From: an uncultured Gammaproteobacteria bacterium
GTDB lineage: Bacteria > Patescibacteriota > Microgenomatia > Levybacterales > UBA12049
Assembly: GCA_964424775.1 (NCBI GenBank)
Contig: CAYRJZ010000001.1
Location: 204,748 to 268,747, forward strand
Length of the DNA: 64,000 bases
Direction of reading: 5' to 3'
Numbering within the stretch: position 1 is the stretch's first letter; each line of letters begins with the position of its first letter. Positions 7,100 to 41,339 of this stretch are shown in pieces. A program made the position numbers and the translations under genes. Below the pieces are notes generated by a model. The model ran no database searches. It was not told the origin of the DNA and saw only the letters and a list, made by a program, of their open reading frames with translations.

Positions 7100-7124
7100 T
7101 GAGATTTCACTTATAATAAAGCAC

Positions 7125-18285: not shown

Positions 18286-18322
18286 TTGACAAAAAATAGC
18301 ACTCCTGTTATTATAGTGCTAA
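18286..18322 (+). promoter_or_regulatory. sigma-70 promoter (TTGACA-17-TATTAT) overlapping a CIRCE operator (HrcA binding site)
   Basis: TTGACA 18286-18291, TATTAT 18309-18314. Inverted repeat TAGCACTC-ctgttatta-TAGTGCTAA at 18297-18322, matching the CIRCE consensus TTAGCACTC-N9-GAGTGCTAA in 16/18 positions. Directly upstream of hrcA. Confidence 0.75.
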
Positions 18323-18337
18323 CATCTGGTACTGACT

Positions 18338-19075
18338 ATGCATAACTTAACACAAAGACAAATTCAGATTCTCAAAGCAATTATTGAAGAGTATATTAAT
18401 ACTGCTGATGCTGTTGGATCTGAAACACTTGAGAAAAAATACAACTTAAGTGCGTCACCAGCGACTATTCGTAACGAAATGGTTCGTCTTTCAGAATTAG
18501 GATATTTGAAAAAACCCCATTCTTCAGCTGGACGAGTACCGACACCTGCAGGGATGAAATTCTATGTGCGAGAGCTCATGAAAGAAAAAGAGCTTTCAAC
18601 AGTAGAAGAAGTTGCGTTAAAGGAAGGTATCTGGGATTATCGAGAGCAAATGCAGCGCTTCCTCAAAGAGGCAACAAAGTCTCTTGCACAAAAAACGGGA
18701 GCACTTGCTATTGCTACGACAAATTCAGGTGATGTTCTCGCTTCCGGATATGCAAATATTCTTGAGATGCCAGAGTTTTTTGATATTGATATTACCAAAG
18801 CGCTTCTCTCAACACTTGATGAGTATGACTATTTCCATGATCTTTGCCAAAAATCATATACATCAATGGGAGAGGACATATACATTTTGATGGGAGATGA
18901 ACTGGGTCAGCAACTCACCGGACCATATAGCTTTGTCTTTACTCATTACGAGACACCACAACATGGTTCAGGAGAGATAGGAGTAATTGGTCCAGTAAGA
19001 CTTAATTATACGACGGTTGTTCCAACGGTCAGATATTTTGGAAATTTAATTGAATCGATTGCAAAAGGATGGTAA
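18338..19075 (+). CDS. hrcA: heat-inducible transcription repressor HrcA (short form)
   Basis: MHNLTQRQIQILKAIIEEYINTADAVGSETLEKKYNLSASPATIRNEMVRLSELGYL winged-helix N-terminus. Position upstream of grpE-dnaK. CIRCE upstream. Confidence 0.8.
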   Translation: MHNLTQRQIQILKAIIEEYINTADAVGSETLEKKYNLSASPATIRNEMVRLSELGYLKKPHSSAGRVPTPAGMKFYVRELMKEKELSTVEEVALKEGIWDYREQMQRFLKEATKSLAQKTGALAIATTNSGDVLASGYANILEMPEFFDIDITKALLSTLDEYDYFHDLCQKSYTSMGEDIYILMGDELGQQLTGPYSFVFTHYETPQHGSGEIGVIGPVRLNYTTVVPTVRYFGNLIESIAKGW

Positions 19076-19578
19076 TGATGAGAGACGACGCAGTATCACA
19101 AAATGACATTCAAGAAAAGGAACAAGTAATGGCGAATGAAAGCGTTGAACCGGAAGAAATTCAGATAAATGAGTGGCAGAATAAATATAAAAGAGCGTTA
19201 GCAGATTATCAGAACCTTGAAAAGCGTGTGCGAGAAGAGAGAGGTGACCTTATTAGGTCGGCAAATAGAGATATTCTCTTGCGATTTTTGCCAATTTTGG
19301 ATACATTACTTATGGCAGAAGCTCATACAAAAGACCAGACACTATCTGTCTGTGTCCAGCAATTTCTCGATACGCTTAAGTCAGAGAATGTGACGAGAAT
19401 AAAAACAGTCGGTGAACAATTTAATCCTGAGATAATGGAAGTTATTACGACAGGACCAGGAAAGGAAGGAGTTGTTATGTCAGAGGTACGATCAGGATTC
19501 CTCTTACATGATAAACTCTTACGACCTGCACAAGTGATTGTGGGGAATGGAGAAAAAGAAATAAAGGAGAAAAATTAA
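19069..19578 (+). CDS. grpE: nucleotide exchange factor GrpE
   Basis: [45 protein letters not shown]. Operon position. Confidence 0.85.
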
Positions 19579-19580
19579 TT

Positions 19581-21470
19581 ATGGGAAAGATTATAGGTAT
19601 TGATTTAGGTACAACAAATTCAGCAATGGCTGTAATGGAGGGAGGATCTCCCAAAGTTATCCATTCTGCAGAAGGACGAAATGTCATTCCATCAGTTGTT
19701 GATCCAAAGACACATGTGGTAGGAGATGTTGCAAAGCGACAGATGGTGTTAAAGCCGAAAGAGACTCTTTTTTCAGTAAAGCGTTTGATGGGTAAGAAAT
19801 TTTCAGATCCATCTGTTCAGCAGGACATGAAATTGCTTCCATACACAGTAAAAGCAGGACGCGATGATATGGCAGTCGTTGAGGTTGATGGCAAAACATA
19901 CACACCTCAAGAAATATCAGCAATGATACTTCAGAAAATTAAAGCTGATGCTGAAGCATATTTAGGTGAAAAAGTGACAGAAGCAGTTATTACTGTTCCT
20001 GCATACTTTGACGATAGTCAGCGTCAGGCTACCAAACAAGCAGGTGAAATTGCAGGTCTTGATGTAAAGCGTATTATTAATGAACCGACAGCAGCAGCTC
20101 TTGCTTACGGACTTGATAAAAAAGATGCTCACACTATTGCTGTGTATGATCTTGGAGGAGGAACATTTGATATTTCTATTCTTGAACTAGGAGAAGGGGT
20201 AACAGAGGTTAAGTCTACGAATGGAGATACGCATCTCGGAGGAGATGATTTTGACCAGGTAATTATTGATTTTATTGCGGATGAATTTAAAAAAGAAAAT
20301 AGTATTGATCTTCGTAAAGACCCTCAGGCTCTTCAGAGATTGAAGGAGTCTGCTGAAAAAGCGAAAATTGAACTTTCAACTTCTCAAGAAGCACAAATTA
20401 ATCAGCCATTTATTACTCAGGGAGAGTCAGGACCACTTCATCTGACCATGAGTCTTTCTCGAGCAAAACTTGAGAGTCTTGTTGATGATCTTATTCAAAA
20501 AACACTTCAACCAGTGGAGAAAGCCTTGAAGGATGCGAATATGAAGGCATCAGATGTTGATGAGGTAGTTCTCGTTGGTGGAATGACACGTATGCCAAAG
20601 ATAGTTGAGACTGTCTCAAAGTTCTTTGGAAAGGAGCCAAATAAATCAGTTAATCCTGATGAAGTAGTTGCAATAGGGGCTGCTGTACAAGGTGGTGTTC
20701 TTTCAGGAGACGTGAAAGATGTCCTACTTTTAGACGTCACGCCTCTTACTCTTGGAATTGAGACTTTGGGTGGCGTCTCAACACCTCTTATCCCACGAAA
20801 TACAACTATTCCTACATCAAAATCTCAGGTGTTCTCAACTGCTTCAGATAATCAAACCCAGGTAGAAATTAATATCTTACAAGGAGAAAGACCAATGGCG
20901 CAGGATAATAAATCGCTTGGGAGATTTATTTTGGATGGAATTCCTCCAGCTCCACGAGGTATGCCACAAGTTGAGGTAACATTTGATATTGATGCGAGTG
21001 GTATCCTTCACGTTAAGGCACAAGATAAAGCGTCAGGAAAAGAGCAGAGTATTAAAATAACTGGAAGTACCGGTCTTTCAAAAGAGGAAGTAGAGCGAAT
21101 GACAAAAGAAGCAGAAATGCATGCAAAAGAAGATGAAGAGAAAAAAGAACAGATTGAAGCGAAAAATCAGGCAGATGCCCTTATTTTTACTGCTGAGAAG
21201 TCCTTAAAGGATGCTGGAGATAAAGTAAGTGATGATGTGAAGAAAGAAGTGGAGGAGAAGATTTCTGCACTGAAGAGTATTCTCGATACTGGTTCAAAAG
21301 AAGAATTACAATCAAAAACTCAAGAACTCTCTGAGAGTCTTCAAAAAGTTGGTCAAGCGATGTATCAGCAAAATACACAGCAAGAAACACCAGCAAAAGA
21401 AGATACCTCTTCCGAGGCAAAATCATCAGATGAGCCAGTTGAAGGGGAGGTAGTCGATGACGGAAAATAA
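19581..21470 (+). CDS. dnaK: chaperone DnaK (Hsp70)
   Basis: [37 protein letters not shown] and C-terminal lid. Unmistakable. Confidence 0.97.
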
Positions 21471-21801
21471 GTTTTCTCCTGAAGAATATAGTCAAGCTCC
21501 TTTAACTTTTTCAGACACGAATGAAGAGTCCATACCTCATCAAAGTGGAAATCCACCTATTCCAGTACAGCCTCGAACAGAGGAAGAGCGCGCTTTAGAC
21601 CTCTATGATGATCAAGGAATTAGAACAAAGTCTCTTCCAGCGTCACGATTGGCTGGACCAGTGAAGTCTGGGGTAAATAGTCTTCCTGATTCATTTTCCC
21701 CTCTTCCTATTCCCGACCCACGAAATAGAAGAACTGAACGTGCACCATGGTGGAGAGGTCCTCGTAAAAAGTCAGTGAAGGGAGTAAGAAATGGCAAGTA
21801 A
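21457..21801 (+). CDS. hypothetical small disordered protein between dnaK and dnaJ
   Basis: 114-aa ORF filling the 320-nt dnaK-dnaJ gap, overlapping both ends. P/S-rich with a basic C-terminal tail. No family. Coding status uncertain. Confidence 0.25.
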
Positions 21802-22678
21802 TGACTATTATCAGATATTAGGTGTTTCTAAATCTGCAACTCAGGATGAAATAAAAAAATCATATCGAAAACTCGCCCTGCAGTATCATCCTGATCGAAA
21901 TAAGACAAAAGAAGGAGAAGAGAAATTTAAAGAAATCACAAAAGCGTATGAAGTTCTGTCCGATCCTCAGAAAAGACAAACGTATGACCAGTTCGGAGCG
22001 AGTGCTTTTGAAGGTGGAGCAGGCACAGGAGCAGGAGGCCCCTTTGGAGGATTTGGCGGACAATCTGGGCGTTATGGACCGTTTTCATATACCTATTCAA
22101 CTGGTGGAGATGGACAGGGGTTTGATTTTGGAGGGTTCTCAGATCCATTTGAAATTTTTGAACAATTTTTCGGAGGTGCATCGCCATTTGGTTCACGTGC
22201 GCGTCGACCCGTCTATTCATTATCGCTTAGCTTTAAAGAAGCTGTTACTGGTGTAGAAAAGGAAGTAAATATTGATGGGAAAAAACAAAAAATAAAAATT
22301 CCCGCTGGAGTGGATACAGGTACTCGTATGAGATTTGGGGAGTTTGATCTCGTTTTTGACGTTGCCAGTGATCCAAAGTACCAGCGTGAAGGCTCAGACG
22401 TTATTACCATTGAAGAAATTACTTTTCCTCAGGCAGTCCTTGGAGACACAATTGAGGTAGAAACAGTAGAAGAAAAAGTATCGATAAAAGTACCGCCTGG
22501 TACGCAGCCTGAAACCCTTATTAGACTCAGAGGAAAAGGTATCCAAAGACTTCAAAGTACGAGTAAAGGTGACCATTATGTTCGAATAAAGGTTGTTATT
22601 CCAAAGACTGTTACGAAAAAACAAAAAGAATTACTTGAGCAATTTGAGAAAGATAACGGTAAAAAAGGCTGGTTCTAA
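21791..22678 (+). CDS. dnaJ: DnaJ-family co-chaperone, class B (CbpA-like, no zinc-finger domain)
   Basis: J domain [36 protein letters not shown]-rich linker and C-terminal substrate-binding domains. No CxxCxGxG repeats anywhere in the 295 aa. Confidence 0.85.
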
Positions 22679-22762: not shown

Positions 22763-23056
22763 ATGTGCGGACCGAATGAAACCTTGACTCAGCTTGGATG
22801 CTTACCAAATGATCCTGTTCAGTTTATCGGTGAGTTTTATACTATTGGGCTAGGAATAATTGGAGGAGTAGCCCTTCTTTTTATTATTTTTGGGGGTTAC
22901 ATTATTCTTACCTCACGAGGAAATCCGCACCAACTCAATACAGGGAAAAGTTATATTTACTACTCGATTTTTGGACTCTTACTGGCAATATTCGGATATC
23001 TCTTTATAGAGGTGGTTCTTGTCGATATTTTGCGTATTCCTGGTATATCTCGATAA
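22763..23056 (+). CDS. small two-TM hairpin membrane protein, hypothetical
   Basis: 97 aa. Helices IGLGIIGGVALLFIIFGGYIIL and IYYSIFGLLLAIFGYLFIEVVLVDIL, separated by a short polar loop. Ends 3 nt before the giant downstream ORF. Confidence 0.5.
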   Translation: MCGPNETLTQLGCLPNDPVQFIGEFYTIGLGIIGGVALLFIIFGGYIILTSRGNPHQLNTGKSYIYYSIFGLLLAIFGYLFIEVVLVDILRIPGISR

Positions 23057-23059
23057 TAT

Positions 23060-26000
23060 ATGAAAAAGTTTCTGCCCAAACTGCTCCTTTTTGTTGTTAT
23101 TCTTACTTGTTTTGTAGCAGTTCCAAGACCGACTCAAGCACAGAATCTAGATACTCAACTTCCCCAAGTAGGATCATGGATACGTGACCCTGAGGTTACA
23201 CGTGTTGGTAAAAATGCATCTCGCTCTGGAATGCTTTTAGACTGGACACTGAAAGAATATCGTTGGACCGCTCAGTCATATGATGGCACCAATAATCCTC
23301 TCGTTCCCTTCTGGCAAATCGTACAAAGAATAGTCTATGCACTCTTTCTGGTCGTCATTATGATAACCGCATTTATTTTAATAGTTACGCGTGGAAAGAG
23401 TCTCTCAGCAAAGAGATTCCTGCCTCGCTTCTTTCTTGTCATCTTACTTGTGACATTTTCTTTTTCACTTGTTCAATTTCTCTATCAAATTACTGATATT
23501 TTTCAAGGATTTTTCCTTCGCAATCCCCAAGGAGCGATTATCTCCTCAAAAGATTTGTTATTTATAGGTTTTGATTATAGGACATTTGAAGGACTGAGAC
23601 GTTTTGGCCCTGATTTTGACGAGACAGCTTTTACTTCATTACTCTTTGTTAAGCTAACAGCCTTTACCTACTATGCAATGTCTATTCTGCTGATTATTCG
23701 AAAAATTATATTATGGTTTTTTGTTGTTATTTCACCTGTTTTTCCTCTGCTAATTCTCTTTTACCCAGTTCGAAATACCGCAAAAATTTGGATAGGGGAA
23801 TTCTTTAGATGGCTGTTATACGCTCCTCTTTTTGCAATATTTCTTTCAGGCCTTGTTCGTCTTTGGCAGTCAAATTTACCATTGCTTTTCAGTAATGAAG
23901 GAGTTGGTGATCCTTCAAAAATAATCTATCCAACTGCAATTAATATTCTTCTCGGTGGTCCGCAACAGCAAGTAGGAATAAATAACAGTATCAACCTTCC
24001 CGATACCTTTGCACTTTATCTTGTTGCAATTATTATGCTCTGGGTAGTTATAATACTGCCTTTTATTTTGCTTCAAATATTTTTAGATTATATGATGGCA
24101 TTTAATTATCGAGAGAATCCAGCAGTAAAGCAGATGATGGGGATTATAAATAATAGACTGGCTCCTCCTTCAAATCCCAAAACGCCAGTTATTCCTGTCG
24201 GACCTGCGACAACAGGAATGGCACGTAATTTGCCTTTCACCAGAAAGTACACAGCTCCAACTTCAACGGGGCTTGCTCGAGAGATTCCACAGGCAAGGAC
24301 TATTTCCCAGAGAACCCGTATTGATCGAACGACACCAGTTTTGAGAAGTAAAACAGCTGAGATCTCACGTCTTACTAACTTATCAATTCCAACAATGAGA
24401 GACATTGCCCGGTATGAGCGTGAGAAACTAGCAAATAGTGTCTTAATGCAGAAAGAATCGGTAAGGACTCAGGAGATATTAAGAAATATTGCCAATCCTG
24501 CATCAATCTCTACAGTAACTGAGCGTGATAGATTTCGACAAATTCGGGAGAAGTTGGTAAATGAAAGTACAAAAGGAGACCAGATTTCTTCATCTGTCTT
24601 AAATGCCGCTTCATTATTCAATTCATATGTAACTTCCACATCTACTCAGTCTGCATCAAGTACGCTTCAAACAATTATTCAGCAGTTAACAAATCCTTCA
24701 GTTATTACAAATACTACTGATCGAGAGAAAATTACTGAGATAAGAGAGAAGCTTAATTCAGTAAAAGATTCTGGAAAAGAGTATGTTTCCTCTATCCTAA
24801 AATCGATCTCAGTTCAGGATAAGAGTCAAATGAAGGAAACATCATTGCAAAGTGTTCTCCAAAAATTGTCTCAGACTAATTCGATAACTGATCAAAAAGA
24901 GAAATTACAGTATCAGTCGCTTCGTGAGAAGATAACTGATGCAAGTCGTTCAGGAAATCAGTTGGCAACATTAGTAAGAGAATCGCTTGAAAAATCGACC
25001 TCAACTGAGCAAGTAAAACATATTCAGCAAGAGCTTATCCGCGCGAAAGAACAAGGTAATCCCCTTGCAGGTGAGATTCTTAAACAAGCCCAAAATGAAA
25101 GTAAGAAAGAAGTTGATTCCCAAACTCTCATCACTCAATTAGAAGAAGCTAAGAAGCAAGGTGATCCGTTAGCAACCCTTCTTCTCCAATTGATTACTCA
25201 AAAGAAATCACAGACACAGAAAGCACCTGTTCCAGCAAATGCAAAAACAAAGACTGGATCCTTCCCTGTAGTAAATAGAATTCAACAGGTAAGCCTTGAT
25301 GATTATGAAGCAGTAAAGAAAATGTGGAGTGAGAACTATCGCGACCTTGAAGTCCCTCAAAGTATTTCAGGTACTCAATCACGAAAGCAGTGGATTAGTA
25401 GTGATATTTTGGATATTGAACAGACTATTAGTCTATTGACATCACAAAATAGTGCAGATGTTGAAGATGGTATGAAACAGGTGGCTGATATCTTGCCATT
25501 CCTTCTCATTGGTGGATTTAGTCAGACAGAGATAGTTGCATATTTAAAAGCAAAACTTGAAGCTGGTAAATCAGTTCTTGAAGAAGTTGAGAAACAAGTT
25601 GAGGAGGAGGATACACTTCTTGAGACAAAGAGGCGAACAACTGAAAATGAGAAACATCTTGCAGCGTCTCAAGAAATTAATGAGACGAACTATTCACAAA
25701 ATAATGCACAAAGTATTACGAATAATTTTAATACGACAAACATAAGTAATGAAAATATTGAAACAACAGACGTTCAGTCAGGCGTAAGTACCCCTTCAAA
25801 TACATTACTTCAGCTTACTCATTTGTCACTTCCAACCATAAAAGATATTGTGAGATTTGAACAAAGCAAAATAGCAGAGAGGAAAGAGATGCTATCAGAA
25901 TCCGAAAGAATTTTAACGTATTTAGCACATCCTGAAAGGTTAAACCCAGAGGAAAGAGTAAAGTATCAGGAACTTCATGATCAACTCCTGTCAGAAAGTG

Positions 26001-27319
26001 AAAGAGGCAATACGATTGCACAGGCTATACTTGCTGCCACAACATCAGATTCAGAGTCAAGCGAAATAACAGATGAGAATATGAGTGAATTTATTGACAA
26101 CCTTCAATCTTCTCTTTCAATAATAAGTAATCAATCAGACGTAAAGCCTGAAGATGTAAAAAAAGTTCTTCTCTCGCTTAGTAACGTCGAAAAAGTAAAT
26201 GATGAAAAAGATAAAGAGTTATATACACAATTAAAACAAGAAATACTCATGAACTCATCGAGCTCGCTTGCTCAACAGCTGAGGGAGGTGCTGAATAATC
26301 CTTCAAATGCTGTTTCACTTGACAAATTATCATCAGATATTCAATTAGCTAAAGCAAATGGGGATAAAATAGCTGAAGATCTTACACTGCTTATCCCCTC
26401 ACAGGCAAAATTGGGAGTTTTACAGCAAAATTCTCTTGTAACAAAAATACAAAATACTCTTCAGACAGTACAGGGCTATCAAGCACAAAACATGATGCGT
26501 TTTCTTGAGAAATTAGGAAATCCTGAGCAGATTAGTGTTGCAACTGAGAGAACGAACTTCACCAAACTTGTTGAGCGTTTAAGTCAGGAACAGGACATGA
26601 ATAATCTTGCAGCAACACTTCTAAAAGTAGCCAAAGATGAAAACAAAGAATTACGGGTTTCTGAAGTGTACAGTGTGCTTAAAAATGAAGTACAAAAAGG
26701 TGATCCATTAGCTCTTTATATAACTCAATCCCTCCTTATTCCTTCAAAAGAAATGGGTTCGTCTGTTAAAGAGATTTATAAAGAAATTGTGCGAGAAAAG
26801 GAAAAAGGAAATAAAGTGGCTGAGGAAATTCTTGATAGTTTAGCAAAACCTCAAGTAAAAACAAGAAAATTTGGATCATTTGCATTACCTCGGCAAAATA
26901 GAGTCCAGCAGGTAACTCTTGATGATTATGAAGCAGTTAAAAAATTATGGTACGAGATATACTTGCAGTCAGATGTACCAAAAAATGGGGAGGCAGTACA
27001 GACACGTGAAGAATGGATTAAGAGCGATCAAAAAGCAATACAGCGTGTCATTAATCTGCTTTCATCAGAGATTGAAGAAGAAAATGCATTAGGAATGGAG
27101 ATGGTAAAGGATATCTTGCCTTTCCTCTTTATCGGAGGGTTTAGTAACGACGAAGTGATAGGGTATTTGAAAGCAAAGTTAGAAGCAGGTAGTATGGCAC
27201 TTGAGACTCTTAAAGCCAGAAATGAGGGGGAAGACACGAAAATTTTGGTAGATAATTTAAATGAACAATCTCAAAACCAGAATGTTCAAGAAATATCGCT
27301 TGAGAAAAAGCAAGGCTAA
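23060..27319 (+). CDS. giant secreted polytopic membrane protein with tandemly duplicated C-terminal helical-repeat module (hypothetical)
   Basis: 1419 aa. Signal peptide MKKFLPKLLLFVVILTCFVAVPRPTQAQ. ~70-aa extracytoplasmic segment. 5-6 TM helices within aa 90-350. Then ~1000 aa hydrophilic, built of two diverged copies of a ~480-540-aa unit, each made of ~35-aa helical repeats of the form ..REKL....G..LA..LL.. Open frame with no stops. Confidence 0.6.
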   Translation: MKKFLPKLLLFVVILTCFVAVPRPTQAQNLDTQLPQVGSWIRDPEVTRVGKNASRSGMLLDWTLKEYRWTAQSYDGTNNPLVPFWQIVQRIVYALFLVVIMITAFILIVTRGKSLSAKRFLPRFFLVILLVTFSFSLVQFLYQITDIFQGFFLRNPQGAIISSKDLLFIGFDYRTFEGLRRFGPDFDETAFTSLLFVKLTAFTYYAMSILLIIRKIILWFFVVISPVFPLLILFYPVRNTAKIWIGEFFRWLLYAPLFAIFLSGLVRLWQSNLPLLFSNEGVGDPSKIIYPTAINILLGGPQQQVGINNSINLPDTFALYLVAIIMLWVVIILPFILLQIFLDYMMAFNYRENPAVKQMMGIINNRLAPPSNPKTPVIPVGPATTGMARNLPFTRKYTAPTSTGLAREIPQARTISQRTRIDRTTPVLRSKTAEISRLTNLSIPTMRDIARYEREKLANSVLMQKESVRTQEILRNIANPASISTVTERDRFRQIREKLVNESTKGDQISSSVLNAASLFNSYVTSTSTQSASSTLQTIIQQLTNPSVITNTTDREKITEIREKLNSVKDSGKEYVSSILKSISVQDKSQMKETSLQSVLQKLSQTNSITDQKEKLQYQSLREKITDASRSGNQLATLVRESLEKSTSTEQVKHIQQELIRAKEQGNPLAGEILKQAQNESKKEVDSQTLITQLEEAKKQGDPLATLLLQLITQKKSQTQKAPVPANAKTKTGSFPVVNRIQQVSLDDYEAVKKMWSENYRDLEVPQSISGTQSRKQWISSDILDIEQTISLLTSQNSADVEDGMKQVADILPFLLIGGFSQTEIVAYLKAKLEAGKSVLEEVEKQVEEEDTLLETKRRTTENEKHLAASQEINETNYSQNNAQSITNNFNTTNISNENIETTDVQSGVSTPSNTLLQLTHLSLPTIKDIVRFEQSKIAERKEMLSESERILTYLAHPERLNPEERVKYQELHDQLLSESERGNTIAQAILAATTSDSESSEITDENMSEFIDNLQSSLSIISNQSDVKPEDVKKVLLSLSNVEKVNDEKDKELYTQLKQEILMNSSSSLAQQLREVLNNPSNAVSLDKLSSDIQLAKANGDKIAEDLTLLIPSQAKLGVLQQNSLVTKIQNTLQTVQGYQAQNMMRFLEKLGNPEQISVATERTNFTKLVERLSQEQDMNNLAATLLKVAKDENKELRVSEVYSVLKNEVQKGDPLALYITQSLLIPSKEMGSSVKEIYKEIVREKEKGNKVAEEILDSLAKPQVKTRKFGSFALPRQNRVQQVTLDDYEAVKKLWYEIYLQSDVPKNGEAVQTREEWIKSDQKAIQRVINLLSSEIEEENALGMEMVKDILPFLFIGGFSNDEVIGYLKAKLEAGSMALETLKARNEGEDTKILVDNLNEQSQNQNVQEISLEKKQG
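24380..27300 (+). repeat. intragenic tandem duplication (two ~1.45-1.6 kb units) inside the giant ORF
   Basis: Protein blocks LSIPTMRDIARYEREK / LSLPTIKDIVRFEQSK (nt ~24381 and ~25826). FPVVNRIQQVSLDDYEAVKKMW / FALPRQNRVQQVTLDDYEAVKKLW (nt ~25261 and ~26881). VADILPFLLIGGFSQTEIVAYLKAKLEAGKSVLEEVEKQVEEEDTLLE / VKDILPFLFIGGFSNDEVIGYLKAKLEAGSMALETLKARNEGEDTKIL (nt ~25488 and ~27111). Short stretches are near-identical at DNA level (gatgattatgaagcagt, gatatcttgcc). Confidence 0.7.
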
Positions 27320-27358: not shown

Positions 27359-30031
27359 ATGCTTGGTAACCTGTTCAACCAACATAAAGAAGAGAAGTTA
27401 GATGCAGCTCCTCAGTCAAATGGAGATGCAACACAGACTGATCCTCAGCAACCACAAGAGCCATCTTCAAGTCCAACTGTAGGATCACGCATGGATCCAA
27501 GTTTTCGACAGAATTTATCAGCCTTATCTCATTTAGACTCTCGTACTACTCAAGTCCTCCATCATGCTCAAGATGAAACGAAGAGAATTAGACAACCTCT
27601 CATTGAACCTGAACAAATATTAATTGGTCTTTTATATGACGAGTCAGTTTTTAAATTGCTAGAACAATTTGATGTAGATGTAGCAAAGCTTGCACAAGAG
27701 CTCCAGACAAAGGAGCAACTCGGAACATTTTCTGGACAGCCAACATTAAGTAATGATACGACATCACTTTTTGAACAAGCATACAGAGAGGCAAAAGGAA
27801 GAGATGCAAGTTTTGTAACTCCTGAAGATGTCTTACTCATTCTATGTAATAGTAATATGGAAGCTGCAAAAAAATTGCAAGAAAAGGGGATATCCAAACA
27901 GGCTGTCTCTGAGAAAATCACGAAAAGTGCTAATTTTTCAAAAGGTGGAAAAAAATCTGTATTAGAACAGTTTGCAATTGATCTTACTGAGGAAGCGCGT
28001 GCAGGCAAACTCGATCCAATTGCTGGTCGAGATAAAGAAACAGAACGACTCATTCATATTCTTCTTAGACGAACAAAAAATAATCCTATCATTATCGGAG
28101 AAGCTGGTGTTGGTAAGACAGCAATAGTGGAAGGTCTCGCATTAAAAATTGTTTCTTCACAAGTGCCTAAAGAGTTAAGTGGACGGAAGATTTTTCAACT
28201 CGATCTGGCTTCTCTTGTTGCAGGCGCGAGTCATAGAGGAGAGTTTGAAGAAAGACTCAAAGGAGTAATTAATGAGGCGATAGCATCTCAGGGTCAGATA
28301 ATTCTATTTATAGATGAGATCCATACCCTTATTGGTGCTGGAGACACTGATGGAGCATTGGATGCGTCAAATATTATTAAACCTCATCTGGCTCGTGGTC
28401 ATATGCAGATAATTGGGACCACAACGACTACAGAGTATCGAAAGCATTTTGAGAAGGATAAAGCTTTTGAGAGAAGATTTCAGCCAATAATAGCTGAAGA
28501 GCCAACTGAAGAAGTTGCTGTCGAAATGTTAAAAGTACTTAAAACTAAGTACGAAAAATTCCATAATGTTACTCTTCCTGATGACACCTTAACAGCAGCT
28601 GTTAAGTTGTCCAAAAAGTATATTGGTGAGCGGTACCTTCCTGATAAGGCAGTTGACCTTCTCGATGAAGCAGCAGCTGAGGTAAAACTTGAGAGTGGCG
28701 GAGGTAAACGACAGGATACACAGGTCGTGAAGAAAGATATTGAAAAGGTTGTTTCTGATTGGACAGGAATTCCAATTACTAAATTAACAGAAGATGAGAG
28801 TCAAAAACTTCTTAATCTTGAAAAGAAAATTCATGACCGACTTATAGATCAAGTAGAGGCAGTGACAGCGGTTGCTGAAGCTGTAAGGAGAGGTCGAATA
28901 GGTCTTGCACCTGCAAATAGACCAATTGCTTCATTTATTTTTCTTGGTCCAACCGGAGTAGGAAAGACAGAACTTGCCAAAACATTAGCAGAAATTTTAT
29001 TTGGCCGTGACGATGCATTAGTTCGACTTGATATGAGTGAGTATATGGAAAAGCATGAAGTGGCTAAATTAATTGGTGCACCTCCTGGGTATGTCGGATA
29101 TGAAGAAGGAGGACAACTTACTGAAGCAGTCCGGGCAAAACCATACTCTATTGTCCTTCTTGATGAAGTTGAAAAGGCCCATCCAGATGTCTTTAATATT
29201 CTCCTTCAGCTTTTGGAAGACGGTCGTCTAACTGATAATAAAGGAAATACAATCTCGTTTAAAAATACGATTGTGATATGTACTTCTAATATAGGAAGCG
29301 CACTTATTCAGCAACAACTGACTGAAAAGGATGATGTTACTCTAACTCAAACAGATGAACAACAAGCGCAGCTCTTTGCAGAACTAACCTCAACTGTTAA
29401 TGGTGAGCTTCGAAAATTCTTCAGACCTGAATTATTAAATAGATTTGATGACGTGGTAATATTTAAGCCTTTAAGACGACAAGACATGTCACAAATTGCA
29501 AAGCTTGGCATTGCTAAAACTGGTAAACTTCTTGAGGAACAAGGATATCATATTCAGACAAGTGACAAAGCACTTGCTCAACTTGCAAAAGAAGGATATG
29601 AACCTGCAAATGGTGCTAGACCATTACGAAGACTTATACAGTCTTCTATTGAAAATCAAATTGCACTTCTTCTTATTAATAAAACGTTCGCACCTGGAGA
29701 TACAATAGTAATCGATTATGATGAGAGTAAGTCTGAATTTGTCTTCAACAAAGGAACAGCACAAGTTGTATCACCTACAGCGGATAATGTATCAGAAAAG
29801 ACAGATTCTTCTCCAGATTCAATGCCTGTTGCAACAAATACACAAGAAGTTACACAACAGCCCTCACAACCGCAAGTCGTATCTGGAGACATGCAAGCAA
29901 ATTCAGCAGTCAATCAGCCACAGACTCAGTTTGCCCCACCGAATTTTAACCCTCCTTTTCTGAAAAAAGAGGATAATAATTCACAAACAACGCCAAATGG
30001 CGTCATCCAAGCCTCAGCTGCTGTCAATTAA
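27359..30031 (+). CDS. clpC: ClpC-type AAA+ chaperone ATPase (two NBDs, Clp N-domain repeats, short linker, Q/P-rich C-terminal tail)
   Basis: Clp_N repeats in aa 60-200. NBD1 Walker [16 protein letters not shown] and Walker [12 protein letters not shown]2 [49 protein letters not shown]. No long ClpB-type middle coiled coil. C-terminal ~90 aa low-complexity. Confidence 0.85.
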
Positions 30032-30404
30032 CTTGTTCTTTCAGGTTAAAGATCCTATACTTTTATATGTAGGAATGTCTGCCTTAATTTCTCTGCCAGT
30101 TTATTTTTTGCGATTTTGGTACTTAGAAGTACCTTCTCGCATGCTTGATTATTTCCTTACTCTCAATCAGGCATTCTTTCAATTATTCTCATTGCCACTT
30201 TTTGTCAGGACATTTTTCCTCCCTCTTAAAAATGAATATAGGAAAGGTCTTGTTGGATTTTCTTTAGGTATGGGAATTGCAGTCAAACTTCTTCTCATAA
30301 TTGTAGATGTCTTATTATTTCTTCTCTTATTACTGCTTGAACTTGTTCTAATTGCAGGATTTATGCTTTTTCCTATACTTACTTTACTTATACTTATATG
30401 GTAG
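29997..30404 (+). CDS. small integral membrane protein, hypothetical
   Basis: 135 aa, 3-4 TM helices. Starts inside the clpC 3' end. Its stop overlaps the next start in an ATGGTAG arrangement. Confidence 0.35.
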   Translation: MASSKPQLLSINLFFQVKDPILLYVGMSALISLPVYFLRFWYLEVPSRMLDYFLTLNQAFFQLFSLPLFVRTFFLPLKNEYRKGLVGFSLGMGIAVKLLLIIVDVLLFLLLLLLELVLIAGFMLFPILTLLILIW

Positions 30405-32803
30405 CTTCACAGAAACAACTTATTTCAATCTACGCAATATACCGTTCTGCGCTCATTCGAACGATACGCTTTTTTCTTTTCATATCTCTGTTATTACTTC
30501 TTGTGTTTACTACAACTCAAGGCGGGGATATACGTATCCCATTATTCTTTTTTAACATTTTCCTTATGACGGAGATCTTTTATCGATATAAAATTTCTCG
30601 TCTCAGACCTGCGAGAAAAGTCTCGGAAATATCTGAGGATGAAGCAGTTGCAGCTTGTACACAGCTCGTTTTATATGCACTCTATTCTGCAAGTTCAGCA
30701 GAAGAGCTCGTCAGACATCTTTTTTCTACTCACCAAGCAAAATTTATGCTAGAGAGATGCGGGCTTTCTCCAGAAGAGCTTCCTCACAGTCAGATTGATG
30801 CAGGAACGCTTCTTCGTTATGCACACAAGCTTGTGAAGAGTGTTGAAGGTGAGTACATAACTACTGCTGACATATTAGCTGCCTACATTATGTATGTTGA
30901 GCCTGAAGCACACTTACTCCTTTCAAAGAAACTTCGTGAAGATGAATTTATGGACATATTAAAGTGGACTCGTTGGAGGTTTCAGCAAGAAGAAAAACCG
31001 CAGAAATTAGAAGTTCATTTTAGCGGAAGCGGTATAGGAGATGGTCTCATCACAGGTTGGACACTTGAAACGAAGAAATACACGCGTGATTTTAGTCTGG
31101 ATGCTCTTCAAAAAAATACGTCAATCTTTGGAAGAGAAAAAGAGTATGATCTTGTTCAGGAAACATTGGCAAAAGCACAAAATAACAATATTCTTCTCAT
31201 AGGGGAACAAGGAGCAGGAAAAGAAGGTCTCATTCGGAAGTTTGCTATTGAAAGTTATATGGGGAAGAGTACTCCACATACGAGACACAAGAAAATTCTT
31301 GAAATTCTTGTAGGGCCACTTATTGCTGGTGCAACAAGTAGAGGAGATCTGGAAACACGACTTCAAGCAATAATAGAAGAAGTTTCTCATTCTGGAAATG
31401 TCATTCTCTATATTCCTGAACTTCAGGATATACTAGGAAGTTCATCTTTTTCGATGGATTTATCAGGTGCTCTTTATCCATATCTTCAGAGTGGTAAATT
31501 CCCAATCATCGCGTCATTGACACCTGGCAACTTTAAAACGTACTTGGAAGGAAAGCCACTTGCTCAATTATTTACGCAGATTTCTTTAACAGAGCCTAAA
31601 GAGGAGTCTGCCCTTCGTATGTTAATGGAAGTAAGTCGAGACATTGAGCAGGAGTCTCATGTAGCCATAACATATCGTGCAATCTCCAGTGCTGTATCAC
31701 TTGGAAATAGATATATGCAGGATATGCAACTTCCAGGAAGCGCAGTGCGCCTTCTCCAAGATACTGTAGTAAGGGTGCAACAAACACCTGCGGCGCAACA
31801 AACCTATACTAGAAAACGAATAGTAACTGAAGAAGCGGTTGTTAAGACTGTAGAGGATAAAACTCATATTGCTCTTTCTGAGCCGAATGATGAGGAAAAA
31901 CAGTTGTTATTGCATCTTGAAGACACGCTTCATAAAAAAATTATTGGACAGGATGAGGCTATTAAAGTATTAGCTCAAGCGCTTCGAAGACTGAGGTCAG
32001 GGATGGTTGAAAAAACACGTCCTACGTCATTTCTCTTTTTGGGGCCAACTGGAGTTGGAAAAACAGAAACTGCTAAGACACTCTCTGAGATATATTTTGG
32101 TGGTGAACGGGCAATGATCCGACTCGACATGAGTGAATATGCTGATAGTACTGGTGAGAAAAGATTGCTCGGAGCTCCTCCGGGAGAAGGAGAAGAGCGA
32201 GGAGAATTAACGGAGAAAGTTCGGGACAATCCTTATTCTCTTATTCTTCTCGATGAATTTGAAAAAGCTCATCCGCGCATACTGGATCTCTTCCTACAGG
32301 TTTTTGATGACGGAAGACTGACGGATAATAAAGGACGTACTGTTTCTTTTGTAAATACGATAATTATTGCGACATCGAATGCAGGATCATCTTATATAAG
32401 TGAAGAAGTAAGACAGGGGAGACCTCTGGACAGTAAAAAACTTATTGAGTATCTCCAGTCTCAACACCTCTTTAAACCGGAACTCCTTAATAGATTTGAT
32501 GATGTTGTTACCTTTAGGCCGCTTTCTCAAGTTGAAATACAGAAAATCTCAAAATTACTTCTAGAAGAGATGAAAGAGCGGATGAAAGAACGGGATATCC
32601 ATCTGTCGTTTACGGAAGCAGTTATTCAAAAGATAGGAAAAGATGGATTTGATCCTCAGTTTGGTGCTCGTCCAATTAGACGATACATTCAGGATTCAAT
32701 TGAAGATCTTTTGTCACGAAAAATATTAGCAAACGAAATTCAACGAGGAAATACTCTTCATATTGATGTGAAGGAGAATGTATTTGATGTCACAGTTTCT
32801 TAA
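30398..32803 (+). CDS. membrane-anchored Clp/Hsp100-family ATPase paralog with degenerate NBD1 and intact NBD2
   Basis: Two N-terminal TM helices (FFLFISLLLLLVFTT, IPLFFFNIFLMTEIF). NBD1 Walker A GEQGAGKEG (K followed by E, not S/T) and Walker B position ILYIPEL (Asp replaced). NBD2 intact: [45 protein letters not shown], sensor SNAGS, GARPIRR. Confidence 0.7.
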   Translation: MVASQKQLISIYAIYRSALIRTIRFFLFISLLLLLVFTTTQGGDIRIPLFFFNIFLMTEIFYRYKISRLRPARKVSEISEDEAVAACTQLVLYALYSASSAEELVRHLFSTHQAKFMLERCGLSPEELPHSQIDAGTLLRYAHKLVKSVEGEYITTADILAAYIMYVEPEAHLLLSKKLREDEFMDILKWTRWRFQQEEKPQKLEVHFSGSGIGDGLITGWTLETKKYTRDFSLDALQKNTSIFGREKEYDLVQETLAKAQNNNILLIGEQGAGKEGLIRKFAIESYMGKSTPHTRHKKILEILVGPLIAGATSRGDLETRLQAIIEEVSHSGNVILYIPELQDILGSSSFSMDLSGALYPYLQSGKFPIIASLTPGNFKTYLEGKPLAQLFTQISLTEPKEESALRMLMEVSRDIEQESHVAITYRAISSAVSLGNRYMQDMQLPGSAVRLLQDTVVRVQQTPAAQQTYTRKRIVTEEAVVKTVEDKTHIALSEPNDEEKQLLLHLEDTLHKKIIGQDEAIKVLAQALRRLRSGMVEKTRPTSFLFLGPTGVGKTETAKTLSEIYFGGERAMIRLDMSEYADSTGEKRLLGAPPGEGEERGELTEKVRDNPYSLILLDEFEKAHPRILDLFLQVFDDGRLTDNKGRTVSFVNTIIIATSNAGSSYISEEVRQGRPLDSKKLIEYLQSQHLFKPELLNRFDDVVTFRPLSQVEIQKISKLLLEEMKERMKERDIHLSFTEAVIQKIGKDGFDPQFGARPIRRYIQDSIEDLLSRKILANEIQRGNTLHIDVKENVFDVTVS

Positions 32804-32821
32804 TTGATGTAGAGTAAATAT

Positions 32822-33892
32822 ATGATGAGTAAACTACTAAAATATAATCTCCAAAAAGCTCTTTATTCAAAGTTTAAAGGGAATGGCAGCATGTATGTAC
32901 TTTTTATTTTAGGTACTGCAATGGCTGGTGCTTTCGCATTGACTGGTGGTCTTACTCCTCAACTTAATCCCACCCCTAAAGCTTCAGACCAGGTATTAAT
33001 TGATGAAGAGTCAGCGAACAGAAGTTCAGAGAAGTCTCTTCAATTAGTAGATATTCGTATAAAACCTTCTCCTACTCCCACTTTTACACCGACTCCAACT
33101 CGAACACCGACAGTTACCCCAACACCAGTTGCTTGCCTTAACAGGACTGCAATTTTCGTTCTCGCTGATCTTTCTGCATCCATGCAATTTGACAATAAAA
33201 TGGTTGAATTAAGAAGAGCATTACGACTTCTTCGTGACAAGTTACAGCCAGAAACAGGAATTGGACTTTACGCATTTGGATCATATACAGACTTCTCGTA
33301 TGCGAGTAAACGTGGAGTAAGAGAAATTGTCGCGCTTAATAAATATAGAGATAATAAAGATACGTTTGATCCTGCTGTGAACGGGTTAAGTGAAGGCGGT
33401 CTTGGGGGAACGTATATGAGACCTGGTTTTGAGGTGGCAATAGATAGGCTTAATCGAGCTCAGGAAAGAACGTCATACTTTAGGGATTATCAGTACGTTA
33501 CTATTGTATTCTCCGATGGTGTCCCGGAGAGATCAGGAGCGGATAATCTGGCTGATCGTAACCTTGGAGCATGTGCTCCAGGACGTCAAACAACGTCCGG
33601 GTATTATCAAAAATGTTTTGCACAAGAGCTTGATCCACGGACAGATCTCACGACTCAATTGAAGAGTGAAGGAAAAGTTTATTCTGTCGTAGTCTATGAT
33701 ACTCGAGCGGGTGAAGACGACAGTTACTTTGTTTCACCGGTTGATTCAAATGATAGGCTAAGAACACTTATGAAAGCTGTGGCAACTCAACCTTCAGGTT
33801 CATCGAGTACATATTACGATGTTGAAGTACGAGGAGTAAGTAGACTTGCAAATATTTTTGATAGCATTGTTCAAGGTATCTGTACAAATTAA
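32822..33892 (+). CDS. membrane-anchored extracytoplasmic von Willebrand factor A (vWA) domain protein
   Basis: N-terminal TM (MYVLFILGTAMAGAFALTGGL), TPTFTPTPTRTPTVTPTP linker, complete MIDAS (DLSASM = DxSxS, GGTYMRPG Thr, FSDGVPE Asp). Confidence 0.7.
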   Translation: MMSKLLKYNLQKALYSKFKGNGSMYVLFILGTAMAGAFALTGGLTPQLNPTPKASDQVLIDEESANRSSEKSLQLVDIRIKPSPTPTFTPTPTRTPTVTPTPVACLNRTAIFVLADLSASMQFDNKMVELRRALRLLRDKLQPETGIGLYAFGSYTDFSYASKRGVREIVALNKYRDNKDTFDPAVNGLSEGGLGGTYMRPGFEVAIDRLNRAQERTSYFRDYQYVTIVFSDGVPERSGADNLADRNLGACAPGRQTTSGYYQKCFAQELDPRTDLTTQLKSEGKVYSVVVYDTRAGEDDSYFVSPVDSNDRLRTLMKAVATQPSGSSSTYYDVEVRGVSRLANIFDSIVQGICTN

Positions 33893-40184: not shown

Positions 40185-41339
40185 ATGGTTGACGCTGCCC
40201 TCCCTACTACTCCTCCAGTGAATGGAAAAGGAGCTCAAACTCCTTCTTCTCCTTCCTTTATGACACCAACAGGAAAAGGAGAATCAAATGATCAGATCAG
40301 AAAATTGGGAGAAAGAATAGAAAAAGCTGAACTCCCTGATGTTCTTAAACAAAATCTTCTTGAACGTGTTTCACGCCTTGCACTTCTTCGAGCAAGTTCC
40401 GGGTTTATGAGCGCAAATTATATTCTTGAGTATGAGAACACATCGAATTATATCAATTGGGTAGTTGGACTTCCTTGGCATATGAACACCCAGGATGTGC
40501 TTGATTTAGTAAAAGCGAAGGAAATAATGGACAAACATCATTATGGGCTCGATGTTATAAAGAATAGAATTCTTGATTATCTAGCAACAATTATTTTAAA
40601 TATGAAACAACAACGACATGATTTAGTTACACGAGCTCCTATTTTATGCCTTGTAGGTCTGGCTGGAACTGGTAAAACGACGCTTGCTTCATCTATTGCT
40701 GAAGCACTGGGGAAAAAATTTGAACGTATACCATTTGGAGGAATGGCAGATTCGCGTGCTCTGCGTGGACAATCAAAAGCATTTCCAGATGCAGAGCCTG
40801 GATTTGTTGCTAAAAAATTATTTCATGCAAAATCAAATAACCCGGTTATTCTGCTTGACGAGTTAGATCGTGTCACAGAGTCTGCTCGAGCTGATATTAT
40901 GGGAGTTCTCGTTGAGCTTTTGGATCCTGAGCAGAACTTTGCGTTTACTGATCACTATATTGATTATCCTTTCAATTTATCTAATGTTCTGTTTATTGCT
41001 ACTGCAAATAACACAAGCAGCATCTCAACTGCTGTTCTCGATCGTCTTGAGATCATTCAGATGCCATCTTATACCGATGAGGAGAAAATTGTCATTGCTA
41101 AGCAATATTTGTTCAATCAAATCAGATCAGAAGCAGGGTTAAGTGATCAAAATTTAATTATAGATGAAGCAGTTTGGCCTGGAGTCATTCGACCCTTGGG
41201 CTTTGATTCAGGGATTCGATCACTTGAACGAACGATTCAGGGTATTTGTCGAAAGGTTGCTAGACAAATAGTTGAAGGAAAAGTCACAGCTGTGCGCATT
41301 ACAGATACTAATCTTAAGGAGTATCTCCCACAGTGGTAA
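40185..41339 (+). CDS. Lon-like AAA+ ATPase module lacking N-domain and S16 peptidase domain
   Basis: Colinear with the Lon region from the helical bundle through the AAA+ alpha-subdomain: YINWVVGLPWHMNTQDVLDLVKAKEIMDKHHYGLDVIKNRILDYLA; ILCLVGLAGTGKTTLASSIAEALGKKFERIPFGGMADSRALRGQSKAFPDAEPGF; VILLDELDRV; VLVELLDPEQNFAFTDHYIDYPFNLSNVLFIATAN; LDRLEIIQMPSYTDEEK. Stops at TAA 41337-9 exactly where the protease domain would begin. RNase J begins 57 nt later. Confidence 0.8.
   Translation: MVDAALPTTPPVNGKGAQTPSSPSFMTPTGKGESNDQIRKLGERIEKAELPDVLKQNLLERVSRLALLRASSGFMSANYILEYENTSNYINWVVGLPWHMNTQDVLDLVKAKEIMDKHHYGLDVIKNRILDYLATIILNMKQQRHDLVTRAPILCLVGLAGTGKTTLASSIAEALGKKFERIPFGGMADSRALRGQSKAFPDAEPGFVAKKLFHAKSNNPVILLDELDRVTESARADIMGVLVELLDPEQNFAFTDHYIDYPFNLSNVLFIATANNTSSISTAVLDRLEIIQMPSYTDEEKIVIAKQYLFNQIRSEAGLSDQNLIIDEAVWPGVIRPLGFDSGIRSLERTIQGICRKVARQIVEGKVTAVRITDTNLKEYLPQW

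Follow-up and report, generated by a model that had tools for sequence, protein, structure and literature searches.

Hsp100/Clp ATPases are the textbook case of soluble, pore-threading unfoldases. The 64,000-nucleotide stretch analysed here, referred to as the window (contig CAYRJZ010000001.1 of assembly GCA_964424775.1, positions 204,748 to 268,747), encodes an 801-amino acid (aa) Clp paralog, named tmClp, which is anchored in the membrane and lies directly behind the gene of a small membrane protein, named sTM. The locus raises the question of what kind of enzyme tmClp is and which of its neighbours belong to it. The analysis shows that the sTM-tmClp module is present in Levybacteria and in at least two further branches of the Patescibacteria (candidate phyla radiation, CPR). 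This conserved two-gene CPR module is apparently undescribed: full-text literature searches, with most subscription journals outside their coverage, turned up neither a membrane-anchored bacterial Hsp100 nor an sTM-tmClp pair. With moderate confidence, the pair is read from its sequences as a two-subunit, membrane-embedded, Hsp100-derived ATPase, which would be driven by its second ATPase tier (D2), work in a non-threading (Torsin-like) or otherwise atypical manner and act on envelope or membrane clients.

The sTM and tmClp genes

The genes of the module are the following:
29997-30404, + strand: small open reading frame (ORF), 135 aa as mechanically called in the ORF list
30075-30404, + strand: sTM, about 109 aa, with the probable start M27 judged from homologue lengths; obligate partner of tmClp
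30398-32803, + strand: tmClp, 801-aa membrane-anchored Hsp100/Clp paralog, the ATG of which overlaps the sTM stop

The genes of a ClpC-like protein, the small ORF, tmClp and a von Willebrand factor A (vWA) protein are all on the + strand. The first-pass annotation of this DNA had described four same-strand genes with overlaps or short gaps and an ATGGTAG junction, and this layout is borne out: no gap exceeds 43 nt, and the TAG of sTM and the ATG of tmClp overlap in ATGGTAG. The spacer in front of the ClpC-like gene, which follows the gene of a giant membrane protein, measures 39 nt, and the one separating tmClp from the vWA gene 18 nt. The 135-aa membrane protein of that annotation is present as a gene, probably at a different length. 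Its true start is probably Met27 (30075), 43 nt past the ClpC-like stop, because nearly all homologues are 108-109 aa long.

Distribution and synteny of the pair

One genome per species (GTDB representatives) was scanned with family-specific N-terminal patterns, which gave 78 loci, and the proteins of the window were mapped onto them. All 78 loci come from metagenome-assembled genomes of Levybacteria or Patescibacteria, many of them labelled "uncultured Gammaproteobacteria". Upstream sequence sufficient for sTM was available for 73. The sTM gene is directly upstream of tmClp in 68 of these, the reading frames typically overlapping by 4-7 nt, and is fused to it in frame in the other five; sTM is hence adjacent or fused in 73/73 Levybacteria loci. 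The fusions are located at L056:9767-12385, L067:8968-11097, L068:9728-12193 and L074:6742-9219, and the fifth (L042) runs across a run of N. In the fused forms the first transmembrane (TM) helix of tmClp is lost, and the C-terminal helix of sTM then sits beside TM2. Such in-frame fusions represent Rosetta-stone evidence of a physical association between sTM and tmClp. The coupling of the small membrane protein to the paralog, proposed in the first reading, is supported by this constant adjacency, the frequent overlap and the fusions.

A search of 5.8 billion proteins with tmClp returned 840 matches. The best 120 of these are all about 800 aa long, with full-length coverage and 44-97% identity, and their names, where given, point to Levybacteria or Patescibacteria. 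A profile built from two distant Clp N-termini added about 90 full-length proteins of 830-872 aa, carrying two to three N-terminal hydrophobic segments and named as Berkelbacteria, "Patescibacteria group" or ADurb bins. Three distant sTM relatives were located on contigs, each directly upstream of a Clp-like gene of 817-850 aa (or partial), once after rplJ-rplL, once beside LytR and once after a CsoR-like repressor and a ferredoxin. Four further contigs of the distant branches all carry an sTM-like ORF directly upstream, in one case uncalled and overlapping the Clp start. At the non-Levybacteria loci, sTM thus precedes a TM-anchored Clp-like gene of 817-872 aa in 7/7 cases, in unrelated contexts.

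The module can be defined by (i) an sTM with the motif W(W/F)Y...FSxxxLL(R/K)T(L/F)FxPW(K/R) or KNEYR; (ii) a gene position immediately before that of a TM-anchored Hsp100 paralog, or a fusion with it; (iii) a degenerate first tier (D1) and an intact D2 in this paralog; (iv) the linker G-x-G-I-G...G-(W/Y/F)-T. All of these features were found in the window.

At the Berkelbacteria-type loci L079, L084, L085 and L087 the surroundings of the pair are conserved: genes for a Zip transporter, a metal repressor of CsoR type (PF02583) and a ferredoxin of small size precede it, and those for a YkuD L,D-transpeptidase and a CAP-domain protein follow. At L081:5210-6172, downstream of a distant sTM, a gene begins like tmClp (TM segments, N-domain, GGIGRDWASGYTP motif) and continues past a GSGKT Walker A with RecG-like helicase motifs (LMVPTEILAEQH); it represents either an assembly chimera, the contig having 3.9x coverage, or a real domain swap.

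Domain architecture of tmClp

Two features lie on the N-terminal side of the protein:
30464-30589, + strand: N-terminal TM hairpin of tmClp, residues 23-40 and 45-64, from conserved columns, AlphaFold2 (AF2) and hydropathy
31019-31084, + strand: Gly-rich linker motif FSGSGIGDGLITGWTLETKKYT, family-specific, at the junction of the Clp_N-like helical domain and the first nucleotide-binding domain (NBD1)

By its Pfam domains and the superposition of its AF2 model, tmClp is a class 1 Hsp100/Clp protein with a double AAA+ body. The Pfam matches are AAA_lid_9 (residues 402-500), AAA_2 (543-702) and ClpB_D2-small (709-789); NBD1 gave no significant Pfam AAA match, and neither Peptidase_M41 nor any other protease domain was found by the Pfam scan. 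The scores of tmClp against the NCBIfam whole-protein equivalogs of ClpB (TIGR03346, 487 vs a cut-off of 1232), ClpA (TIGR02639, 436 vs 993) and ClpV (TIGR03345, 391 vs 885) are all below the cut-offs.

The AF2 model, built from 105 homologues, has a mean predicted local distance difference test (pLDDT) of 87 and a predicted TM-score (pTM) of 0.76. It consists, in this order, of the hairpin, an eight-helix Clp_N-like domain, the Gly-rich linker at lower confidence and two AAA+ tiers. In a Foldseek comparison, the AAA+ body gave TM-scores of 0.82-0.86 (target-normalised) against ClpC, ClpC1 and ClpB protomers taken from hexamers. The M-domain is missing: residues 463-475 of tmClp correspond to residues 395-520 of T. 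thermophilus ClpB, with about 110 residues gone, and the model contains no coiled coil.

Two N-terminal TM helices had been claimed for the paralog at first sight, and they are confirmed by hydropathy windows beginning at residues 17 and 45 and by AF2 helices at 18-40 and 46-66. The hairpin contains two near-invariant charges, R24 and E59, seen as conserved alignment columns. The basic residues flanking it are consistent with an N-in/C-in topology and a cytoplasmic ATPase. The linker, with the consensus FxGxGIGExLxxGWTxETKKYT, is the second most conserved segment of tmClp (mean pairwise identity 0.54) and is still recognisable in the distant branches as GGIGRDWAYGYTP and SGIGLSWASGFTP.

Catalytic motifs and pore loops

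The alignment of tmClp to two ClpB proteins (T. thermophilus, E. coli) and to its ClpC-like neighbour revealed the following elements:
31202-31582, + strand: degenerate NBD1 catalytic core
31202-31228, + strand: NBD1 Walker A, GEQGAGKEG (reference GEPGVGKTA)
31325-31354, + strand: NBD1 pore loop 1, AGATSRGDLE (reference AGAKYRGEFE), without Tyr
31403-31426, + strand: NBD1 Walker B, ILYIPELQ (reference ILFIDELH)
31559-31582, + strand: lost Arg finger of NBD1, LAQLFTQI, with RR replaced by QL
32042-32683, + strand: intact NBD2 catalytic core
32042-32068, + strand: NBD2 Walker A, intact
32171-32206, + strand: NBD2 pore loop 2, GAPPGEGEERGE, shortened, acidic and without Tyr
32243-32269, + strand: NBD2 Walker B, ILLDEFEKA
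32363-32386, + strand: NBD2 sensor-1, IIATSNAG
32663-32683, + strand: NBD2 GARPIRR motif

The sensor-1 of NBD1 is lost as well, with neither Thr nor Asn at this place. The reading of a dead NBD1 (GEQGAGKEG, ILYIPEL) next to an intact NBD2, made in the first-pass annotation from the letters of the gene, holds in this alignment, and the same degeneration of the NBD1 motifs recurs in more than 200 homologues and is therefore not a matter of chance. Among the Levybacteria, the NBD1 Walker A reads GxxGxG(K/R)E in most members and the Pro of ILYIP(E/D) is near universal. In the distant relatives NBD1 has GK(K/R)T together with a Walker B of FIDGIE or FIENIQ, the D1 pore loops are non-aromatic, the D2 loops mostly so, and the NBD2 motifs are intact. 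The Walker A Thr, the Walker B Asp or Glu and the Arg finger of NBD1 are lost in every branch by differing routes, GKE/IPE in one branch and GK(K/R)T/DG or EN in another. The Walker A, Walker B, sensor-1 and GARPxRR motifs of NBD2 are essentially invariant, at 120/120 in Levybacteria and 91/91 in the remaining branches.

The mean pairwise identity is 0.50 for NBD1, 0.69 for the large domain of NBD2 and 0.33 for the TM hairpin, and 29 alignment columns of NBD1 reach at least 90% conservation. A pseudogene or a decaying NBD1 can be ruled out, since GxxGxG[KR]E and ILYIP[ED] are themselves strongly conserved. Judged by these motifs, the D1 tier of tmClp is a conserved pseudo-ATPase, and the D2 tier retains every residue of ATP hydrolysis, the trans-acting Arg included.

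Both pore-loop tyrosines are gone in all 120 Levybacteria homologues, KYR being replaced by TSR or similar and GYVGYEEGG by G(E/Q/K)GEE. The ClpP-docking loop [ILVMA]G[FL] is absent in tmClp and in 190/192 members of the family, the segment after the D2 sensor-1 has a ClpB-like length, and no ClpP gene is located within the 64-kb window. The lack of pore Tyr, M-domain and ClpP loop indicates that tmClp is neither a partner of ClpP nor a canonical threading unfoldase. Of the earlier description as a membrane-anchored, single-active-ring Clp unfoldase, the anchor, the dead D1 and the live D2 stand, and the label "unfoldase" is doubtful because the tyrosines are missing family-wide.

The pore loops also bear on the alternative that tmClp is an extractase or unfoldase comparable to FtsH or Msp1, threading its substrates by non-aromatic loops, with sTM as substrate adaptor or gate. 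The geometry of a membrane-tethered AAA+ ring, the intact D2 motor, the retained Clp_N-like domain and the position of tmClp beside dnaK/dnaJ in Levybacteria would fit such a function, and so would the single Tyr kept in the D2 loop (GSPAGYSEKIEG) by 13/91 members of the second branch. Against it, both aromatics are missing in essentially all Levybacteria members, the short acidic D2 loop (GEGEE) is unlike that of any characterised translocating Hsp100, and a protease-partner motif is lacking along with a protease domain. An extractase of this kind is considered unlikely, and an atypical or non-threading ATPase is preferred.

The small subunit sTM

The sTM protein contains, successively, the motif FL+FW(F/Y)xE(A/V)P, the motif FSLPLxx+TFFKPxKNEYRxGLVGFS and a hydrophobic helix of 45 residues with the invariant residues K71, E89 and P100. 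Its 109 homologues are all about 109 aa long and annotated as "hypothetical". A profile of 69 sTM sequences run against 1.84 billion representative proteins gave only 67 matches, all of them small; the weakest, of 120-141 aa, share WWYxE...FSxxxLL(R/K)T(L/F)FxPW(K/R)(R/K) followed by a long hydrophobic helix. No family was matched by sTM in Pfam, NCBIfam or PADLOC, and no fold relative was found in the Protein Data Bank (PDB). The AF2 model (pLDDT 94.5) consists of an amphipathic N-terminal helix (residues 3-37), a short helix, the invariant loop TFFKPxKNEYRxG and the hydrophobic helix.

Neighbouring genes

The genes surrounding the pair in the window are the following:
18286-22678, + strand: heat-shock cluster hrcA-grpE-dnaK-(114-aa ORF)-dnaJ, upstream of the cassette described below
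22763-23056, + strand: T4SS_pilin-like gene (PF18895), member of the cassette
23060-27319, + strand: giant membrane protein, 1419 aa, the N-terminal region of which matches TrbL/VirB6 below threshold
27359-30031, + strand: ClpC-like soluble Hsp100, 890 aa, a neighbour outside the conserved module
32822-33892, + strand: vWA protein, 356 aa (PF00092), a lineage-specific neighbour
33167-33184 (DLSASM), 33404-33412 (GGT) and 33512-33520 (SDG), + strand: complete metal ion-dependent adhesion site (MIDAS) of the vWA protein

The backbone of the Levybacteria loci reads hrcA-grpE-dnaK-dnaJ-[pilin-giant-ClpC-like]-sTM-tmClp-[variable]-nusA-infB. In the deep branches dnaJ abuts sTM, with gaps down to 16-46 nt, and dnaJ-sTM-tmClp-nusA are contiguous; the nusA start lies within 500 nt of the tmClp stop in 27/62 loci. 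The ancestral order in Levybacteria is hrcA-grpE-dnaK-dnaJ-sTM-tmClp-nusA. The pilin, the giant protein and the ClpC-like protein make up a facultative cassette, which is located between dnaJ and sTM where it occurs: the ClpC-like gene precedes sTM-tmClp in 29/55 loci and is itself preceded by the giant gene in 25/25 loci where the sequence reaches far enough, and many genomes have dnaJ-sTM-tmClp-nusA without pilin, giant, ClpC-like or vWA genes. The 114-aa ORF of the heat-shock cluster (21457-21801), located between dnaK and dnaJ and overlapping both, matched no Pfam or NCBIfam family.

The pilin match to PF18895 (E = 3e-7) is above the cut-off and that to an NCBIfam integrative and conjugative element (ICE) pilin-like family below it; the N-terminal polytopic region of the giant protein reached TrbL/VirB6 only at E = 0.03. 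VirB4 and VirD4 were not seen in the window. The composition pilin-giant-ClpC-like suggests a pilus- or type IV secretion system-like apparatus with a dedicated soluble Hsp100 ATPase. The giant protein also contains two internal repeats of about 110 aa that end in ...ILPFL(L/F)IGGFS...YLKAKLEAG.

The ClpC-like protein, taken for a normal-looking ClpC in the first pass, departs from that type: it has neither M-domain nor ClpP loop, SHR stands for KYR in D1, its N- and C-terminal tails are of low complexity, and it scores below all NCBIfam ClpB and ClpA cut-offs. All of its ATPase motifs are complete, and D2 retains the GYVG loop. It shares 34% identity with tmClp, and the M-domain is missing at the same junction in both proteins. 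Mixed rings are for this reason conceivable, and tmClp could be regarded mainly as a scaffold or pseudo-enzyme, a membrane anchor that recruits or assembles with a soluble Hsp100 of full activity (the ClpC-like protein, for instance) or further chaperones; the dead D1, the lost pore loops and the neighbourhood of the two genes in about half of the Levybacteria loci agree with this. The D2 catalytic residues, invariant in more than 200 homologues, argue for an active ATPase instead, and the module also occurs without an adjacent ClpC-like gene. A scaffold role is thus judged improbable, and tmClp is taken as a putative ATPase in its own right.

The vWA protein has a Lys/Arg-rich N-terminus, a TM anchor at residues 24-44, a Thr/Pro linker and four conserved Cys. 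The first-pass description as a membrane-anchored vWA protein with a Thr/Pro linker and a complete MIDAS agrees with these features and with the PF00092 match. The protein is probably extracytoplasmic and adhesin-like, judging from its predicted topology, and its gene is one of several surface-protein types that occupy this variable slot. Homologues follow tmClp in 7/78 loci, in two small subclades around the lineage of the window in a rough neighbour-joining tree, so the adjacency of membrane-Clp and vWA genes noted in the first pass is not a general one. AAA+/vWA partnerships are a known theme, and a vWA gene with a complete MIDAS 18 nt past an AAA+ gene invites comparison with the ATPase/vWA pairs MoxR/RavA-ViaA and CbbQO. 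Such a pair is scarcely credible here, given that the vWA domain is predicted outside the cell and the ATPase in the cytoplasm, that the adjacency is confined to those few loci, and that tmClp is Hsp100-type and not MoxR-type.

The first-pass annotation had further suggested a single envelope machine of ClpC, the small protein, tmClp and the vWA protein, perhaps with the giant protein, by which membrane or surface proteins would be extracted, remodelled or secreted. The arrangement of these genes in the window, on one strand and overlapping or no more than 43 nt apart, would suit this, as would the M4/S8 peptidase and SdrD/vWA adhesin genes on either side of sTM-tmClp in the cassette-bearing relatives. 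The wider synteny speaks against it: the vWA gene is restricted to its two small subclades, the ClpC-like gene appears only alongside pilin and giant and is absent where dnaJ abuts sTM, and the pairs of other Patescibacteria have none of these neighbours. A single machine is accordingly very improbable. Synteny over the 78 species-level loci, together with the rough tree, rules out the vWA and ClpC proteins as conserved partners; the ClpC-like, pilin, giant and vWA proteins are facultative neighbours and not subunits.

The variable slots flanking sTM-tmClp in relatives often contain secreted M4 (thermolysin-like) or S8 (subtilisin-like) peptidases, SdrD-B/vWA adhesins and unrelated proteins. 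Examples of the peptidase and adhesin genes are located at L012:7773-9620, L018:7893-9584, L031:6926-9652, L058:7258-9546, L066:7705-9585 and L019:12492-15437. Their products could serve the pilin/giant/ClpC cassette as cargo or accessories.

Proposed function and regulation

In the favoured reading, tmClp probably works as a ring, since D2 keeps a trans-acting Arg finger. The ring would be held at the cytoplasmic face of the membrane by the TM hairpin of tmClp and by sTM, and the conserved intramembrane charges (R24 and E59 of tmClp, K71 and E89 of sTM) suggest an assembly within the membrane. The ATP turnover of D2 would be spent on something other than processive threading. Most likely it would drive the remodelling, holding or release of proteins of the membrane or envelope, or else a change of state in the membrane domain, in a mode of action closer to that of Torsin with its membrane cofactors than to ClpB, ClpC or FtsH.

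A broader proposal, put forward only tentatively, is that sTM and tmClp represent an unrecognised class of prokaryotic membrane AAA+ machine, a non-threading Hsp100-derived ring serving as a lineage-defining envelope or proteostasis device of CPR bacteria. The D2 turnover would then be relayed through the pseudo-ATPase D1 and the Gly-rich linker to remodel or gate a membrane assembly with sTM, in the manner of Torsin-LAP1/LULL1 or Bcs1.

The most economical, weakly supported guess for the process served is membrane proteostasis under stress, because in Levybacteria the pair stands at the 3' end of a dnaK cluster controlled by HrcA through a controlling inverted repeat of chaperone expression (CIRCE). 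The CIRCE operator of the window, ATAGCACTC-N9-TAGTGCTAA, is located at 18296-18322 with 2 mismatches; the number of such sites expected by chance is zero. It is enclosed by the best sigma-70-like promoter (TTGACA-17-TATTAT with TG, at 18286-18314), which stands before hrcA.

Several points weigh against these readings. Over 1.3 Mb of related loci, CIRCE (at most 3 mismatches) was found only at hrcA and never beside sTM-tmClp, so that any heat-shock control of the pair in Levybacteria would need read-through and would not extend to the family as a whole; outside Levybacteria the pair is not near dnaK, and the link to stress or heat shock is positional. Housekeeping genes follow one another on the same strand over a long distance here, which makes co-transcription weak evidence. 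The Tyr of some second-branch D2 loops means that some threading capacity is possible in the family. AF2 draws residues 57-108 of sTM as a single 52-residue helix, and parity arguments from the fused forms do not discriminate between one and two membrane crossings. The function is read from anatomy, and the ring and the sTM-tmClp contact from the Arg finger, the gene fusions and synteny.

Membership in the heat-shock regulon by way of an operator was considered separately and is rejected, as no CIRCE was found at sTM-tmClp in any lineage.

Other features of the window

Three further genes of the window deserve mention. At 7080-9386 a class I lysyl-tRNA synthetase (tRNA-synt_1f and anticodon-binding domain) carries a C-terminal fusion to a B3_4 domain, which is otherwise typical of PheRS beta subunits. 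A Lon-like AAA+ protein of 384 aa (AAA and Lon_lid), encoded at 40185-41339 with PNPase and RNase J on its two sides, has no protease domain. On the - strand, at 49073-52146, a sortase gene is immediately preceded by the gene of a 781-aa protein with a Baseplate_J-like/GlxA beta-barrel segment, possibly a surface protein anchored by sortase.

Comparison with known systems

The closest sequence relative of tmClp in the PDB is ClpB (1qvr, E = 6e-118), with a structural TM-score of about 0.83. As in ClpB/Hsp104, there is a two-tier AAA+ body with AAA_lid_9, AAA_2 and ClpB_D2-small and a Clp_N-like helical N-domain; the ClpB-like length after sensor-1 and the lack of a ClpP loop are further shared features. 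However, ClpB has two competent NBDs, the M-domain, which is its Hsp70-coupling element, and pore tyrosines (KYR, GYVG), and tmClp has a dead D1, no M-domain and neither pore Tyr, in addition to its TM hairpin at the N-terminus and the small membrane protein with which it obligatorily pairs. ClpC, ClpA and ClpE share the overall fold. They differ from tmClp in the (I/V/A)G(F/L) ClpP loop, which 190/192 members of the family lack, in the half M-domain or adaptor site, in their competent D1 and pore Tyr, and in not being membrane-embedded. The public annotation of the family as "ATP-dependent Clp protease ATP-binding subunit ClpC/ClpA" is misleading, because the ClpP-docking motif is absent.

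FtsH, Msp1/ATAD1 and Bcs1 are likewise AAA+ rings tethered by N-terminal TM helices, and a role in membrane-protein handling is plausible for tmClp too. They belong to the classical AAA clade, with one ATPase tier each; the pore loops of FtsH and Msp1 are aromatic, and FtsH carries a protease domain in addition. In contrast, tmClp is Hsp100-type with two tiers, has no pore Tyr and no protease domain, and hence differs from the FtsH type, a single AAA joined to an M41 protease. A division of labour in which one tier is a structural or assembly ring and the other does the work recalls NSF D2, p97 D1 and Pex1/Pex6 D1; these proteins are soluble, and their active tier keeps functional aromatic pore loops. 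The MoxR/RavA type, a MoxR-clade AAA+ paired with a cytoplasmic vWA protein, is not matched by tmClp, nor by the vWA protein with its predicted extracytoplasmic location.

The D2 of tmClp matches the PADLOC models DolB (Dodola) and PDC-M37B (E = 1e-38), but the ClpC-like neighbour matches equally, and the module is passed on vertically, with a constant place among housekeeping genes. A defence system was therefore ruled out, the PADLOC matches reflecting generic D2 homology and the fixed position arguing against a defence island.

Torsins are Clp/Hsp100-related ATPases associated with the membrane by an N-terminal hydrophobic segment and devoid of aromatic pore loops; they act with the dedicated membrane cofactors LAP1/LULL1, and a non-threading mechanism is suspected (PMC5425593). 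The likeness to tmClp covers three points only: membrane association, the lack of aromatic pore loops and a dedicated membrane partner. Torsins, which are eukaryotic and luminal, consist of one AAA+ domain and obtain the Arg finger that they lack from the cofactor, whereas tmClp has two tiers, its own D2 Arg finger (GARPIRR) and a predicted cytoplasmic orientation. The Torsin cofactor has a degenerate AAA+ fold, and sTM is a 109-aa helical membrane protein. With two AAA+ tiers, its own Arg finger and a partner of another fold, tmClp falls outside the Torsins, and the comparison is meant as an analogy only.

Among these systems tmClp is an Hsp100 with a new architecture and probably with a new mode of action. 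If functional, the family widens what the Hsp100 fold is known to do, and it adds a candidate to the CPR-specific envelope and proteostasis biology, where most conserved genes lack an assigned role. The two genes and their natural single-chain fusions make expression feasible in principle and provide constructs for structure prediction. The module thereby offers a bacterial system in which to ask how Clp-related ATPases without pore loops, such as Torsins, work at membranes; should the proposed non-threading class be real, it would be a bacterial counterpart to the enigmatic Torsin mechanism.

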